In this document: one piece after another, positions 1-6,068 of the stretch
How the letters are laid out: each line of letters begins with the position of its first letter
How positions within the stretch are numbered: position 1 is the first letter of the stretch
DNA from: Escherichia phage ID21
DNA: 6,068 nucleotides
Strand: one strand, 5' to 3'
Sequence record: NC_007818.1
The notes under the pieces: model-generated
Databases searched by the model: none
Seen by the model: the letters and a program-made list of their open reading frames with translations, nothing else
What the model was told of the DNA's origin: nothing
Program-made: the position numbers and the translations under genes

Positions 1-66
1 TTGTTGACATTCCCTAAATCCTTATGAGACTCTTGCTTCAGCGAAATGACGCAGGAGTCTTTGCTT

Positions 67-435
67 ATGAAACCCGCACATCGCTTAACCCATCCGGTTC
101 TCGGTTCTTGGTTGTTTAAGTGTCCTGTTTATATCCGTTACGAACACCTTCATCATGGTCGTCTTATTAAGGTTCGTGCTGTTCGCGATTTATCCCCTCG
201 CCAACAGCTTATTGCTAACCCTAAAAATTGCTTTGACGTTGTTATTGCTGAGATTGATGTTACTTATGGCTCCCTCACTTGGTTTGATTATGAGCATGAG
301 GAATATGACGAGTTTGAGCCTGATGTTATAAAAGGCCTCGTTAACTATATTGAAATCCCTCATGTTATCCGTTCTGAGGAAGATCCTTCTGTTGATATTG
401 ATGATATGGATTGGCTTTATGAAATTGCGGAGTAA
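67..435 (+). CDS. Hypothetical protein (122 aa; 129 aa if started at in-frame ATG 46) with basic N-terminal half and strongly acidic C-terminal half, encoded in the expanded H-A intergenic region
   Basis: ORF track 46..435. AGGAG at 53-57 lies 9 nt upstream of ATG 67. Third codon positions are predominantly T (CGT, GTT, GAT, CCT, ATT), as in the capsid and scaffold genes. No similarity to any phiX174 protein I can recall. Confidence 0.45.
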   Translation: MKPAHRLTHPVLGSWLFKCPVYIRYEHLHHGRLIKVRAVRDLSPRQQLIANPKNCFDVVIAEIDVTYGSLTWFDYEHEEYDEFEPDVIKGLVNYIEIPHVIRSEEDPSVDIDDMDWLYEIAE

Positions 436-438
436 ATT

Positions 439-528
439 ATGGAAACTGTTATCGGAAAACTTATTGCTCTGGCTGTTGTTGCTCTTATGCTGTATGGAAT
501 TGCCCGTTTGATTCGGAGGTTTCCGTGA
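439..528 (+). CDS. Hypothetical 29-aa hydrophobic peptide (METVIGKLIALAVVALMLYGIARLIRRFP), likely single-pass membrane peptide
   Basis: ATG 439 lies 3 nt after the stop of the upstream ORF (TAA 433-435), with GGAG at 429-432 six nt upstream. A 17-residue hydrophobic core is followed by RLIRR. Below the size cut-off of the supplied ORF track; translated manually. Confidence 0.3.
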   Translation: METVIGKLIALAVVALMLYGIARLIRRFP

Positions 529-701
529 AATATTTTAGTTTGGTAGATGAACATTATGCTTACTGCCCTGATACAAGGATTTTGCACATCACTCGTAGTC
601 GTGTTTCTGACCCTCGTTATGAGCGTCGCTTTCTTACTGATGAGGAGCATTTTGCACTTTTGGATTGGTTAAAAAATCGCCCAACTTATATTAATTCTTG
701 A
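525..701 (+). CDS. Hypothetical 58-aa protein, GTG start overlapping upstream stop (GTGA)
   Basis: GGAGG at 515-519 lies 5 nt upstream of GTG 525, whose last two bases overlap the TGA stop (526-528) of the preceding peptide. T-rich third codon positions and four CGT Arg codons match the phage coding style. No in-frame ATG, so it depends on the GTG start. Stop TGA 699-701 sits inside the -35 of the gene A promoter. Confidence 0.3.
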   Translation: MKYFSLVDEHYAYCPDTRILHITRSRVSDPRYERRFLTDEEHFALLDWLKNRPTYINS

Positions 702-727
702 CAGGCCTTTAAAATACCCTCTATATT
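698..727 (+). promoter_or_regulatory. Sigma70-type promoter upstream of gene A (P_A candidate): TTGACA(698-703)-18 nt-TATATT(722-727)
   Basis: Perfect -35 hexamer and 5/6 match to TATAAT with an 18-nt spacer, about 35 nt upstream of the A start codon. phiX174 also has a promoter immediately upstream of A. Confidence 0.5.
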
Positions 728-757
728 GCCCTCATAGTTTCACTACGAGGGCTTTTT
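728..757 (+). terminator. Intrinsic-terminator-like hairpin (10-bp stem with one A.C mismatch, 5-nt loop) followed by TTTTT, between the P_A -10 and the A start codon
   Basis: GCCCTCATAG (728-737), loop TTTCA (738-742), CTACGAGGGC (743-752), then T5 (753-757). Position is analogous to a terminator after gene H (T_H) that I recall for phiX174. Confidence 0.4.
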
Positions 758-760
758 CGC

Positions 761-2245
761 ATGGCTACTGAAATCTTCTCTGATGTTGTTAAGTCTGTTT
801 GGTCGCACGCTACGGCTAAGCATTCTCATCTTCGTATGGCTGTGCAGGTTGATAACCGTAGTCGTCTTCTTTCTGATTTGGTTTACCAGCTGGAAAAGCG
901 CCTCTCTGAAGAGACTCATCTGGATGATGAGACTTATGCTCTTTATGAATCTCAAACTGGTCTCTTGGAGGACCATATGGCGCTGGTTCGGAAGTGTGCT
1001 GCCCAACTTGATAATAGTAACACTATAGACCACCGTACTCCTTTGGACTCCGAATGTGTTTTCCTCTTTGAGATGATTTGCCCCGGTGTTCGCTACGGTA
1101 AAACATTGAATTCTCTTTGGACCAAGTATGTTGCCCAGTGGCCTGAGAAGTTGATTCGTCAGGAGCTTGATATGGTTAAGCCTTTATCCTTTAAGGATGA
1201 GGTTGCCAAGTACATGGAGAAAATGCAGGAAAAGACACGCAAAAATCGCATGACTCAGAAAGTAATTAATGAGATGCGTATTGCTCACCAGAAAGGCTGG
1301 TTCTTCGTATTTGATACGTTGACCCTTGCCGATGACCGTTTGCAGGCTTTTAATGAAAACCCAAATGCTCTTCGTGATTATTTCAGGACTGTTGGTCGAG
1401 CTGTTCTGCGCGCTGAAGGCCGCTCGGTTAAGGATTCCTACAACGACTGCTATCGCTATCTTTGTGTGCCGGAGTTTGGAGGTCAGCATGGCCGTCTTCA
1501 TTGGCACGTTGTGCATATGGTGCGGACTCTTCCTTTGGGAAGTCACGACCCTAATTTCGGTCGCAAGGTACGTAATTATCGCCAGATTAACTCGTTCCGT
1601 GGCATGTGGCCTTATGGCTTCACGCAACCGATAGCTGTACGCTATCAACATGATGCTTATTCTCGCAAAGGTTGGCTGTGGCATGTTGACAAATCAGGAA
1701 AAGCAATGCAGAGTAAGCCTTATCAGGCGGTCGCATGGTATGTGACCAAGTATGTGGCTAAGCAGTCTGACCAGCGTCAGAAAGCTATTACCGAGAGACA
1801 AAAGAAATGCAAGAATCCACTTATGGCAATATGTCTGAAAAAGGAATTCAGAGTTCGCAGCAGCCGGAAGCTCGGAATGGAGTTGCCGTCGATGGCGCAT
1901 CTCAGCAACAAGGTACTTCTGGAACTGAGTCGAATCAGCTTCGATTCCAGCCCTCTGTATCAGATAGTGAAAGAGAACGCCAAAAAGCAATTGACCTTGA
2001 ACATCGGCGCGCTGCCTTTACACGTCATTTTGGATGTGCGCCCGGAAGTGAGAAGTATGTTGAAAAATATCCGTCGTTTGATGAAAAAGACACCCGAGTT
2101 CAATTGGCAGAGTTCTATCGCTTCAATGACGGTCACCTTAAAAAATGGGGATATTTCTAATGAAGCACGTCAATACATTATTGATGCAGGAATTACGCCT
2201 TCTGATTTGCGAGCTAAAGCGACTCAAACTTTCGGCGGTAAGTGA
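761..2245 (+). CDS. A: Replication initiation protein A (rolling-circle HUH endonuclease), 494 aa
   Basis: ORF track 761..2245. Contains AWYVTKYVAK with two tyrosines (Y327, Y331) matching the phiX174 gpA active-site YVAKYVNK motif as I recall it, plus an HUH-like LHWHVVH. Central and C-terminal regions align with recalled phiX174 gpA (GWFFVFDTLTLADDRL, NPNALRDYFR, DPNFGRKVRN). Contains the origin at 1004-1033. Confidence 0.95.
   Translation: MATEIFSDVVKSVWSHATAKHSHLRMAVQVDNRSRLLSDLVYQLEKRLSEETHLDDETYALYESQTGLLEDHMALVRKCAAQLDNSNTIDHRTPLDSECVFLFEMICPGVRYGKTLNSLWTKYVAQWPEKLIRQELDMVKPLSFKDEVAKYMEKMQEKTRKNRMTQKVINEMRIAHQKGWFFVFDTLTLADDRLQAFNENPNALRDYFRTVGRAVLRAEGRSVKDSYNDCYRYLCVPEFGGQHGRLHWHVVHMVRTLPLGSHDPNFGRKVRNYRQINSFRGMWPYGFTQPIAVRYQHDAYSRKGWLWHVDKSGKAMQSKPYQAVAWYVTKYVAKQSDQRQKAITERQKKCKNPLMAICLKKEFRVRSSRKLGMELPSMAHLSNKVLLELSRISFDSSPLYQIVKENAKKQLTLNIGALPLHVILDVRPEVRSMLKNIRRLMKKTPEFNWQSSIASMTVTLKNGDISNEARQYIIDAGITPSDLRAKATQTFGGK
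1004..1033 (+). other. Viral (+) strand origin of rolling-circle replication; predicted gpA nick between G1010 and A1011
   Basis: CAACTTGATAATAGTAACACTATAGACCAC matches the phiX174 30-nt origin CAACTTG/ATATTAATAACACTATAGACCAC (recalled) at 27 of 30 positions; the three differences are in the AT-rich middle. Confidence 0.85.
1214..2245 (+). CDS. A*: A* protein: in-frame internal restart of gene A (start uncertain: ATG 1214, 1223 or 1250)
   Basis: phiX174 makes A* from an internal in-frame ATG about 25 residues before the conserved GWF motif. Here in-frame ATGs lie at 1214, 1223 and 1250 before GWFFVF, and AAGGATGAGG (1193-1202) is an SD-like element upstream of 1214. Confidence 0.45.
   Translation: MEKMQEKTRKNRMTQKVINEMRIAHQKGWFFVFDTLTLADDRLQAFNENPNALRDYFRTVGRAVLRAEGRSVKDSYNDCYRYLCVPEFGGQHGRLHWHVVHMVRTLPLGSHDPNFGRKVRNYRQINSFRGMWPYGFTQPIAVRYQHDAYSRKGWLWHVDKSGKAMQSKPYQAVAWYVTKYVAKQSDQRQKAITERQKKCKNPLMAICLKKEFRVRSSRKLGMELPSMAHLSNKVLLELSRISFDSSPLYQIVKENAKKQLTLNIGALPLHVILDVRPEVRSMLKNIRRLMKKTPEFNWQSSIASMTVTLKNGDISNEARQYIIDAGITPSDLRAKATQTFGGK
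1807..2160 (+). CDS. B: Internal scaffolding protein B (117 aa), nested in gene A in another frame
   Basis: ORF track 1807..2160. C-terminus ...RVQLAEFYRFNDGHLKKWGYF parallels recalled phiX174 gpB ...RIQPAEFYRFHDAEVNTFGYF. Stop TAA 2158-2160 overlaps the K start as TAATG. Confidence 0.85.
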   Translation: MQESTYGNMSEKGIQSSQQPEARNGVAVDGASQQQGTSGTESNQLRFQPSVSDSERERQKAIDLEHRRAAFTRHFGCAPGSEKYVEKYPSFDEKDTRVQLAEFYRFNDGHLKKWGYF

Positions 2246-3089: not shown

Positions 3090-4373
3090 ATGTCAAACGT
3101 GCAAACTTCCGCTGAACGTATTCCTCACGACCTCTCTCATCTGGTTTTTGATGCAGGCAAAATTGGTCGTTTAAAGGTTGTTTCTTGGACTCCTGTTGTT
3201 GCAGGTGATTCTTTTGAGCTTGATATGATTGGCGCTATTCGCCTTTCTCCGCTTCGTCGTGGCCTTGCTGTTGACTCTCGCGTTGACCTGTTCACGTTTT
3301 ATGTTCCTCATCGTCATGTATATGGTGAGCAGTGGATTGAGTTTATGAAGCAAGGTGTTGATGCTGCTCCTTTGGCCCCTGTTCAGTGCTCTCGCGGTTG
3401 GGATAGTGCTCAGTATCTTGCTACCATTCCGTCTAGTAACCTGAAGGTTCCTAAGTTTCTTCATCAAGGTTACCTGAATATTTATAACAACTATTTTAAA
3501 GCTCCGTGGATGGATGATTTGACTTATGCCAATCCGTCCAATATGGAAGGTGAAGATGTTCGTTTTGGTGTTCGCGCATGTAACCTGAAGACTATCTGGA
3601 CTGCCCCTCTGCCGCCGGATACCGAGACCTCTCATTCTATGGAGACCGAGACTAACTCCATTGATATTATGGGTTTACAGGCTGCTTATGCTCAATTGCA
3701 TACTGAGCAGGAGCGTGATTACTTTATGACTCGTTATCGTGATATCGTTAACGAATTTGGAGGTAGCACGTCTTATGACGCGGATAATCGTCCTCTTCTG
3801 GTTATGCACTCTGAGTTTTGGGCTTCAGGCTATGACGTCGACGGCACCGACCAAAGCTCTCTCGGTCAGTTCTCCGGTCGTGTCCAGCAGACGTTTAAGC
3901 ATTCAGTACCGCGATTCTTCTGTCCTGAGCATGGCACTATGTTTACACTCGCATTGGTCCGCTTCCCGCCGACCCATGAGATGGAGATGCATTACTTAGT
4001 TGGTAAGGAAGATTTGACTTATACTGATTTGGCTTGTGACCCAGCTCTGATGGCTAACTTGCCTCCGCGTGAGGTTAATATGTCTCAGTTCTTCCATTCT
4101 GGAAGTACTAGTGCTAAGTTTAAGATCGCTGAAGGTCAGTGGTATCGTATGCAGCCTGACCGTGTTGCTCTGCCTTATAACTATCTTGATGGTTTCCCGT
4201 TCTATAGCGCGATTCCGTCTGATGATATTAAGCAGCGTGTTCTGGTTAATACTGATAACTACGATGAGGTTTTCCAGTCTATGCAACTTGCTCACTGGAA
4301 TATGCAGACTAAGTTTAACTGCACCATTTATCGTAATATGCCGACTACTCGTGATTCTATTATGACTTCTTGA
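3090..4373 (+). CDS. F: Major capsid protein F (427 aa)
   Basis: ORF track 3090..4373. Long near-identical stretches to recalled phiX174 gpF (LSPLRRGLA, YVPHRHVYGEQWI, YLNIYNNYFKAPWM, SYDADNRPLLVM, GYDVDGTDQ, PRFF.PEHGTMFTLALVRFPP, KFKIAEGQWYR, TTRDSIMTS). Confidence 0.97.
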   Translation: MSNVQTSAERIPHDLSHLVFDAGKIGRLKVVSWTPVVAGDSFELDMIGAIRLSPLRRGLAVDSRVDLFTFYVPHRHVYGEQWIEFMKQGVDAAPLAPVQCSRGWDSAQYLATIPSSNLKVPKFLHQGYLNIYNNYFKAPWMDDLTYANPSNMEGEDVRFGVRACNLKTIWTAPLPPDTETSHSMETETNSIDIMGLQAAYAQLHTEQERDYFMTRYRDIVNEFGGSTSYDADNRPLLVMHSEFWASGYDVDGTDQSSLGQFSGRVQQTFKHSVPRFFCPEHGTMFTLALVRFPPTHEMEMHYLVGKEDLTYTDLACDPALMANLPPREVNMSQFFHSGSTSAKFKIAEGQWYRMQPDRVALPYNYLDGFPFYSAIPSDDIKQRVLVNTDNYDEVFQSMQLAHWNMQTKFNCTIYRNMPTTRDSIMTS

Positions 4374-4955: not shown

Positions 4956-5090
4956 AAGGCCGCCGCACTCCCGGTTATATGCCTGCCCAGTGTAGGGCGG
5001 ACCGAGCCGTACGGAGATACCCGATAAACTAGGAACGTGGAAGGCGTTAGCCGCCTTCCCTCCTGCTAAGCCCAAAGGAGACTTTCAGCT
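4956..5090 (+). other. 135-nt GC-rich structured G-H intergenic region; candidate complementary (-) strand origin of the DnaG-primase-dependent type
   Basis: No credible ORF. Several stem-loops are visible (6-bp stem 4983-5000; CCGTACGG palindrome 5007-5014; perfect 8-bp stem 5039-5059). A CTG at 5063-5065 sits just 3' of the strongest hairpin. GC-rich unlike the T-rich coding regions. Confidence 0.4.
5039..5059 (+). other. Perfect hairpin GGAAGGCG-TTAGC-CGCCTTCC (8-bp stem, 5-nt loop)
   Basis: Inverted repeat read directly from the sequence. Not followed by a T-run, so not a canonical intrinsic terminator. Confidence 0.5.
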
Positions 5091-6068
5091 ATGTTAGGTG
5101 CCGTTGTAGGTGGTATTGCTTCAGCCTTAGCCGGTGGAGCCGCCTCTAAGTTATTTGGTGGCAAGTCTGCCCCTCAAGCCGCTACAGAGTCCGCTGGTCT
5201 ATCTAACGGTCAAGGTGTTATTGGTATGGACCAAGATGCCGGTATTCAGTCTGCTATTCAGGGTTCAAATGTCCCAAATGGTCAGATTCCTGCTCCTACT
5301 ACTACAGGTGGCGTTATGTCTGATGCTGGCAATATGATTAAGAATGCTGGTAAAGATTTGCTTGATGGTGTTATGACTGCTGGTAGTGACCGCGTTAAGC
5401 AGGCTTTGATTGATAAGTTAGGTGGCAATAATGCGAAGAAACAAGGACAAGCAACCCGTGATTACTTGGCTGCGGCCTTCCCTGAGCTCAACGCATGGGA
5501 GCGTGCTGGAGCTGGTGCTTCCGGCGCCGGCTTGGAATCTTCCAGTCAGGACCAACAGAAAGAATTGATGCGGATGCAGTTGGACAACCAGAAAGATATT
5601 GCGAAGATGCAGATGCAGAATAATTTGCAGATTGCAGGTATTCAGTCCGCTACTTCTCGTCAAAATACGAAGGATTCTGTTTATGCTCAGAATGAGATGC
5701 TTCAGTACAATCAGCGTGAGTCGCAAGCGCGTGTTGAGTCCATCCTTGCCAACACTGACCTTACGGCTAAACAGGCCACCCATGAAATTATGAGAATGGC
5801 CCTTACTCGTGCTCAGGAGACTGGTCAACACTTAACTAACTCCCAGGTTATGGCATTGGAGAAAAAGGTTTATGCAGAAATCGGAAAAATTCATCAGGAT
5901 ACTCAAAATGCTCGTTATGGTAGCTCTCAAGTTACTGCTGCGGCGAAAGATGTTACAAATATGATTTCTGATGCTGCTGGCGGTGTTGCCGATTGGGCTT
6001 CTCAGCAGTGGAATTCTTTCTTTAAAGATGGCAAGTCTAATGGTATTCCTCTCAATACCAGAAAATAA
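5091..6068 (+). CDS. H: Minor spike / DNA pilot protein H (325 aa)
   Basis: ORF track 5091..6068. Gly/Ala-rich N-terminus MLGAVVGGIASALAGGAASKLFGG, TRDYLAAAFPELNAWERAGA, IAGIQSATSRQNTKD.VYAQNEML and RYGSS match recalled phiX174 gpH. SD AAAGGAG 5074-5080. The stop codon is the last triplet of the window. Confidence 0.93.
   Translation: MLGAVVGGIASALAGGAASKLFGGKSAPQAATESAGLSNGQGVIGMDQDAGIQSAIQGSNVPNGQIPAPTTTGGVMSDAGNMIKNAGKDLLDGVMTAGSDRVKQALIDKLGGNNAKKQGQATRDYLAAAFPELNAWERAGAGASGAGLESSSQDQQKELMRMQLDNQKDIAKMQMQNNLQIAGIQSATSRQNTKDSVYAQNEMLQYNQRESQARVESILANTDLTAKQATHEIMRMALTRAQETGQHLTNSQVMALEKKVYAEIGKIHQDTQNARYGSSQVTAAAKDVTNMISDAAGGVADWASQQWNSFFKDGKSNGIPLNTRK

Follow-up and report, generated by a model that had tools for sequence, protein, structure and literature searches.

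ORF58, a conserved reading frame between genes H and A of Escherichia phage ID21, as a probable accessory gene of the alpha3-like microviruses

The genome of Escherichia phage ID21 (NC_007818.1) was analysed as one window, the whole stretch of 6,068 nucleotides, which is a complete alpha3-like microvirus genome (Bullavirinae, genus Alphatrevirus). Positions 1-760, the region between genes H and A, make up about 12% of it, and nearly all GenBank records of the genus give them no annotation. The last of three open reading frames (ORFs) in this region, a 58-codon frame called ORF58 here, is almost certainly a genuine protein-coding gene. The account of it that follows, in which ORF58 is an accessory gene with its own genomic setting, route of expression and kind of product, is taken as a whole the best explanation of the data, and we regard it as highly probable. 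Labelled intergenic in most records, positions 1-760 appear to encode three proteins under purifying selection.

515-519, + strand: GGAGG Shine-Dalgarno sequence of ORF58, inside the upstream ORF29, with a 5-nucleotide spacer to the GTG at 525-527
525-701, + strand: ORF58, third gene of the cassette, 58 codons, GTG start, TGA stop at 699-701

The first-pass annotation of this DNA had described a GGAGG-GTG start overlapping the preceding stop, a phage-like codon usage, and a stop codon inside the -35 hexamer of the gene A promoter, and all of these descriptions stand. The GTG overlaps the TGA of ORF29 (526-528) in a GTGA at 525-528, and the TGA of ORF58 falls within the TTGACA at 698-703. The codon log-likelihood is +0.15 in frame compared to -0.47 and -1.33 out of frame, and T occupies 59% of third positions, compared to 49% in genes A, D, F, G and H. 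The length of the frame is not above chance, since the window holds 29 ORFs of at least 58 amino acids and mononucleotide shuffles give 13 +/- 3. That the TTGACA contains the stop is a one-in-three coincidence of frame. With length and stop position both uninformative, the significance of ORF58 comes only from its relatives.

Genome-wide, ID21 is collinear with and 92-93% identical to ID32 (93%), NC3, WA13, WA45 and NC35. The H-A region was aligned across 25 distinct genomes, comprising 13 GenBank phages and assemblies from IMG/VR and Logan, with 82-91% nucleotide identity to the window in this region. Four further metagenome loci were fetched via the neighbouring gene and are hence unselected for an intact ORF58, bringing the total to 29 genomes. 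Substitutions were counted by tree-based parsimony, and pairwise ratios of nonsynonymous to synonymous substitution rates (dN/dS) were calculated by the Nei-Gojobori method.

Frame-breaking indels in relatives had been named beforehand as the observation to look for, and none lies within 525-701 in any of the 25 aligned genomes. The frame has exactly 58 codons and ends at the TGA of the TTGACA in 24 of the 25. It is unbroken across residues 1-50 in all 29 distinct relatives; three of the four extra loci are intact, and in the fourth only the last 8 residues are shifted. The substitutions are distributed as expected for a protein, with 46, 27 and 134 of the 207 falling at the first, second and third codon positions. 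Read in frame, 131 changes are synonymous and 76 nonsynonymous, compared to 39:165 and 30:174 in the other two frames (Fisher p about 1e-20), and the in-frame dN/dS of 0.18 contrasts with values of 0.98 and 1.61 for the other + strand frames. The third-position periodicity and the low dN/dS point to purifying selection on the protein rather than on a cis-acting element. An antisense gene is ruled out as the source of the conservation because every minus-strand frame over ORF58 has stops in 16 to 25 of the 25 genomes, and the ORF58 frame is the only one of the six that is open in all of them.

The protein itself is recovered as 10 clusters of orthologues, 78-97% identical to the window protein, with 88-100% query coverage, E values of 1e-22 to 1e-31, and 24 residues invariant across all clusters. 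A tblastn search with ORF58 against all Alphatrevirus records gives 88-98% identity. Gene callers have also predicted the gene independently in phage Lilleven (QBZ71504.1) and in Logan, ENA and JGI assemblies.

The start codon is GTG in 17 of the 25 genomes and ATG in the other 8, at the same codon in all, an alternation that reads as the mark of the initiation site. The Shine-Dalgarno sequence, which in the window stands at a canonical distance from the start, is GGAGG in most genomes with a GTG start and TAGGA or AGGAG in those with an ATG start, and GenBank record M25640 (alpha3 gene H) marks ribosome-binding sites (RBSs) in the H-A region, one of which is equivalent to window 513-518. The RTGA overlap with the ORF29 stop is kept in 24 of the 25 genomes, even where the final ORF29 codons differ. 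A start/stop overlap with the Shine-Dalgarno sequence inside the upstream ORF is the layout of translational coupling, so that the coupled translation from a GTG suggested in the first-pass annotation gains in likelihood from the comparison of relatives.

Could the stretch be conserved without being translated? What is conserved might be a sequence that acts in cis as DNA or RNA, with the frame incidental; candidates would be a stabiliser of mRNA 3' ends, a signal for replication or packaging, or an upstream element of the A promoter. The treatment of 1-760 as intergenic in curated GenBank records would agree with this, as would the fact that an ORF of 58 codons is not unusual by chance, the presence of real cis elements (a promoter and two hairpins) at the edges of the cassette, and the precedent of phiX174, which has conserved but unexpressed ORFs (PMC6883844). 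However, a cis element does not produce a three-base periodicity in which 134 of 207 substitutions are at third positions, nor a ratio of 131:76 in one frame with about 35:170 in the others. The change of start codon from GTG to ATG with a kept RTGA overlap is sensible only for translation. There is no relevant Rfam match and no excess of RNA structure at 500-560 around the start, a region that is less structured than its shuffles (z +1.3). An untranslated element is accordingly a very improbable explanation of the data.

Several points nevertheless weigh against ORF58 as a gene. At 82-91% identity the clade is shallow, so the openness of the frame is by itself weak evidence. The curated records of alpha3, phiK, St-1, WA13 and others omit the gene, and the conserved ORFs of phiX174, which carry RBS-like sites, have been shown to make no protein (PMC6883844). 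In the metagenome locus NFYT01000619.1, a homopolymer of A7 (A6 elsewhere) shifts the last 8 residues and gives a protein of 56 amino acids. In phiK, a TGG replaces the TGA (TTGGCA), so that ORF58 runs to 70 codons and the -35 is weaker; the difference may be genuine or a mistake in the sequence of 1992. ORF122, the first gene of the cassette, is frameshifted in St-1, so that, under laboratory conditions, the phage may be able to do without some or all of the cassette.

A protein in ENA, P0003 (78 amino acids), has the N-terminus of ORF29 fused in frame to residues 5-58 of ORF58. Together with the shifted end in NFYT01000619.1, this suggests either that the termini of ORF58 tolerate change or that the assemblies contain errors. 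Fusion of ORF29 and ORF58 by a -1 frameshift was considered and dropped, since there is no slippery heptamer in register and P0003 looks like a deletion variant.

The product of ORF58 has 58 amino acids, a mass of 7.2 kDa and an isoelectric point (pI) of 6.8, and is a near-neutral soluble protein. The invariant residues cluster in the middle of the chain (R18-I-L-H21, T23, S25-R26, D29-P-R-Y32, R34 and L37, followed by E40-E-H42, A44-L and D47-W-L49), and the variable parts are the N-terminal 17 and C-terminal 8 residues. AlphaFold2, run on the family alignment, predicts a compact fold with a predicted local distance difference test score (pLDDT) of 77 and a predicted template modelling score (pTM) of 0.59. 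In the model, strands at residues 2-6, 9-14, 19-22 and 34-36 would form a small four-stranded beta-sheet, accompanied by a conserved loop rich in Arg, His and Tyr (R18, H21, R26, D29-P30-R31-Y32, R34) and an acidic amphipathic helix at 39-50 (E40, E41, H42, D47, W48, L49).

No known family claims this protein. Searches against PHROGs, Pfam, NCBIfam and PADLOC at E values up to 10 gave no match, and a profile search of PDB sequences gave only noise. A word search of 5.8 billion proteins found orthologues of ORF58 only, and apart from the cluster of ORF58 itself, an exhaustive profile search of 1.84 billion representatives brought up a single protein, a 570-residue helicase with HA repeats. With tblastn against phages and plasmids, nothing outside Alphatrevirus scored below an E of about 2. 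The structure search of BFVD returned the model of the Lilleven orthologue as its only significant match; there was no convincing fold match, and anti-defence and exclusion proteins were matched by structure at noise level only. Paralogy with the phage's own genes finds no support either, the best blastp E being 0.46. The product, which the first-pass annotation could not recognise from its sequence, thus stays unrecognisable after family, profile, structure and tblastn searches. ORF58 is too small and featureless for an obvious enzyme, and it lies outside the known set of virion and assembly proteins.

Some candidate relationships were examined and rejected. The likeness to the HA domain (PF03457) lies between residues 34-58 of ORF58 (RRFLTDEEHFALLDWLKNRPTYINS) and the repeat motif of the helicase (RGKVADEEELRLAKWLDNQATFVRS). 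It covers only 25 residues, with an hhalign probability of 22% and no match to HA in Pfam, and the HA domain is a helical bundle, whereas the model of ORF58 has four strands and one helix. Membership of the OmpR/PhoB-type winged-helix DNA-binding domains (Trans_reg_C) was not borne out. The same was true of the HNH or His-Me finger nucleases, which were considered for the beta-beta-alpha layout and the invariant H21 and H42.

ORF58 does not stand alone. It and its two neighbours lie on the same strand and fill the H-A intergenic region, and they are the only ORFs within 1-760 to show a coding signature.

67-435, + strand: ORF122, first gene of the cassette, 122 amino acids, acidic (pI 4.9, net charge -11)
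439-528, + strand: ORF29, second gene of the cassette, 29 amino acids (METVIGKLIALAVVALMLYGIARLIRRFP), hydrophobic with a basic C-terminus

None of the three ORFs occurs without the other two or anywhere but between H and A, and the contigs that carry them are all Alphatrevirus contigs of about 6 kb. In ORF122, dN/dS is 0.19 and the substitutions at the three codon positions number 131, 78 and 363. The ATG at 46 upstream of it in the window is not conserved; the conserved start is the ATG at 67. ORF122 is frameshifted in the St-1 record GQ149088 (after NPKNC) and in the 1992 alpha3 record X60322, and intact in the re-sequenced alpha3 (DQ085810.2); either the two records contain sequencing errors, or laboratory stocks have lost a gene that they can do without. 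ORF29 is conserved in all genomes, its substitutions (44, 10 and 30 by codon position) leave second positions almost invariant, and it is predicted to be a single-pass membrane peptide. All three cassette proteins would, by these comparisons, be orphans restricted to the genus. The GC content of the cassette is 40.7%, compared to about 45.6-46.6% for genes A, F, G and H, and the region is more diverged than the rest, with its 82-91% identity set against 92-93% genome-wide for the closest relatives.

The signals on either side of the cassette are as follows.

4-9, + strand: left TTGACA, 3 nucleotides after the H stop, in the position of the G4 -35
26-61, + strand: hairpin and U-rich run (UUUGCUU; U7 in alpha3), just after gene H
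698-727, + strand: presumptive gene A promoter, P_A, with TTGACA at 698-703, an 18-nucleotide spacer and TATATT at 722-727
728-757, + strand: GC-rich hairpin (GCCCUC.AUAG...CUAC.GAGGGC) and U5, after the -10 and 3 nucleotides before the A start
761-2245, + strand: gene A, replication initiator, 494 amino acids; orthologues carry PF05840 (Phage_GPA), and the gene is gpA in all related records

The window was linearised immediately 3' of the gene H stop, and the gene order from 761 is A, B, K, C, D, E, J, F, G, H. The promoter that serves gene A, whose ATG is at 761, overlaps the stop of ORF58. P_A matches the sigma-70 consensus at 11 of 12 positions, the best score in the whole genome on either strand. 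It is kept in 22 of the 25 aligned genomes, the exceptions being phiK, ID32 and NC35, and its spacer holds no conserved operator-like repeat. NC35 has a 30-nucleotide deletion (equivalent to 705-734) that removes the spacer, the -10 and the 5' arm of the hairpin and leaves ORF58 and the TTGACA intact. NC35 is viable without this -10, so gene A must be expressed otherwise there, presumably by read-through.

The hairpin at 728-752 has a folding free energy (dG) of -14.2 kcal/mol (z -3.7), and its pair 735-745 is TA in 21 genomes and AT in 3. With its U5 it forms a terminator-like element for transcripts coming through H and the cassette. If phiX174 is a guide, transcripts from P_A itself should begin near A734, downstream of GCCCUC, the outer 5' arm. 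The hairpin at 26-61 is more stable (dG -19.8 kcal/mol, z -4.7), and its pairs are kept, with GC, GT or AT at 35-52; occasional compensatory changes are thus seen in both flanking hairpins. Its 3' arm holds the AGGAG Shine-Dalgarno sequence of ORF122 and resembles GGAGGCTTTT..ATG of phiX174 and G4. It is probably a leaky terminator or an RNA-stability element after H, and it could attenuate transcription into the cassette and mask the RBS of ORF122.

The left TTGACA is conserved in all aligned genomes that cover its position. A cassette promoter at this hexamer was considered and found unconvincing, the best -10 partner being GAGACT (9/12 overall). The + strand of the genome has only three TTGACA, two of which flank the cassette as part of a near-direct 9-nucleotide repeat, TTGTTGACA at 1-9 and TTCTTGACA at 695-703. 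The -35 hexamer of P_A, which is the right-hand copy of this repeat, would supply the stop codon of ORF58. The two copies and the duplicated layout of promoter, hairpin and ATG suggest that it was at the -35 of P_A that the Alphatrevirus ancestor acquired the cassette, by insertion or duplication, and its entry there would explain why ORF58 ends exactly at that point. The first-pass annotation had read the overlap of stop and promoter as an overlap of coding and regulatory sequence. The overlap is present, and we read it as genome compaction or a relic of insertion: it would be a feature of the junction or of compaction, and nothing shows it to be a regulatory device.

How would ORF58 be expressed? 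P_A fires downstream of it, so the cassette can be transcribed only by polymerase that reads through H and the hairpin at 26-61, and these transcripts would end at the hairpin and U5 at 728-757. Ribosomes would start at the GTG at 525 via the GGAGG at 515-519, or re-initiate there when terminating ORF29 at the overlapping TGA. Such coupling would tie the output of ORF58 to that of the membrane peptide. Judging from the arrangement of these signals, this combination of read-through and a coupled start is the likelier route, and we hold it with moderate confidence.

The function of ORF58 is much less certain. We tentatively propose that it interacts with the host by binding a partner, that the phage can do without it, and that it is neither an enzyme nor a virion component, while recognising that this specific proposal may well be wrong. 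Binding would be through the Arg/His/Tyr-rich loop and the acidic helix, possibly jointly with the coupled membrane peptide.

A related and rather unlikely reading enlarges the unit of function, so that ORF58 and ORF29, perhaps with the acidic ORF122, would constitute a host-directed module that is useful in natural hosts and dispensable on laboratory E. coli C. It could act in superinfection exclusion, in the modulation of lysis or entry, or in anti-defence. Roles directed at the host are common among small phage genes that are specific to a lineage and sit at variable loci. The stop-start overlap with a predicted membrane peptide in 24 of 25 genomes, the constant co-occurrence of the three genes within Alphatrevirus alone, the GC content below that of the core genes, and a strongly acidic ORF122 that is frameshifted in the record of the long-passaged St-1 are all consistent with such a module. 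On the other hand, the argument is from genomic context only, there is no match in PADLOC, PHROGs or Pfam, and structural matches to anti-defence or exclusion proteins do not rise above noise.

Another reading keeps the function local, with ORF58 as a small nucleic-acid-binding regulator of the P_A/terminator region or of the 5' end of the A mRNA. Synthesis of the replication protein would then be under feedback from late read-through transcription. We consider such a regulator improbable, and less likely than the host-interaction factor proposed above. The boldest version, a doubtful one, is that a functional module was captured at the P_A -35 and that ORF58 founds a new family of small proteins that either feed back on the expression or termination of gene A or, jointly with the coupled membrane peptide, disarm the host. 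If it were true, the host function disarmed would be one that phiX174-like and G4-like phages never meet, and the textbook plan of 11 genes for a microvirus would fall short for an entire genus that serves experimental evolution.

The existence of ORF58 is already known, and the novelty of the gene as such is low. Lilleven (MK629527) annotates the same three ORFs as hypothetical, with ORF58 as QBZ71504.1 at 5855-6031. This is the same gene, with 58 amino acids, 88-90% identity and the same place after ORFs of 122 and 29 amino acids and before gene A; it differs in sequence only. A review of 2010 mentions "five additional conserved reading frames" in alpha3-like phages (PMC2935103, citing Rokyta et al. 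2006). The clade and the description, conserved and unannotated, are the same, and ORF58 is very probably one of the five. More recent accounts of Alphatrevirus genomes keep to the classical genes, with no discussion of the three ORFs.

What is added here is the evidence for selection at the protein level, the conserved layout of start and coupling, the promoter and terminator context, the flanking of the cassette by TTGACA, and the negative result for homology and fold. No new kind of biology is added. The phages alpha3, St-1, phiK, WA13 and ID32 are models for capsid assembly and experimental evolution and are usually described with the 11 genes of phiX174. The presence of three further genes bears on how mutations are interpreted in evolution experiments and on how metagenomic Alphatrevirus genomes are annotated. 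It also raises the question of which accessory functions a 6-kb single-stranded DNA phage can afford.

Away from the cassette, a gap of 135 nucleotides separates genes G and H (window 4956-5090). The primase-dependent complementary-strand origin of alpha3, St-1 and phiK is located in an intergenic region of this kind. The G4 origin, by contrast, lies between F and G (annotated in NC_001420).

The nearest known systems with which to compare the H-A region are phiX174 and G4. Their spacer consists of the H stop, TTGAC(A/T), 17 nucleotides, a -10, a GCCTCC hairpin, a T-run and the ATG of gene A. This order and spacing recur in window 695-763 (TTGACA, 17-18 nucleotides, -10, hairpin, T-run, ATG), and its -10 and 5' arm resemble those of G4, CTCTAATATGCCTCC against CTCTATATTGCCCTC. 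In phiX174 (3956-3980), transcription is annotated to start at 3962, the first base in the loop of the equivalent hairpin. Since this start is past the 5' arm, P_A transcripts would lack the arm, and transcripts from upstream would carry the full terminator. The difference lies in what precedes the promoter. In phiX174 and G4, the H stop is 3-10 nucleotides upstream of the -35 and nothing is encoded between them, whereas in the window a three-gene cassette of 685 nucleotides separates the H stop from the working promoter. Window 1-69, preceding ORF122, looks like a second copy of the module without a -10. Its TTGACA comes 3 nucleotides after the H stop as in G4, and its hairpin is followed by GGAGTCTTT..TTATG, close to the phiX174 GGAGGCTTTTTTATG, but the ATG is that of ORF122.

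ORF58 also resembles gene K and the cryptic ORFs of phiX174 in being small and conserved, with RBS-like sites, and in having a gene status that needs arguing. The cryptic ORFs overlap essential genes and their conservation is borrowed from them, whereas ORF58 overlaps no known gene and carries a signal of purifying selection of its own.

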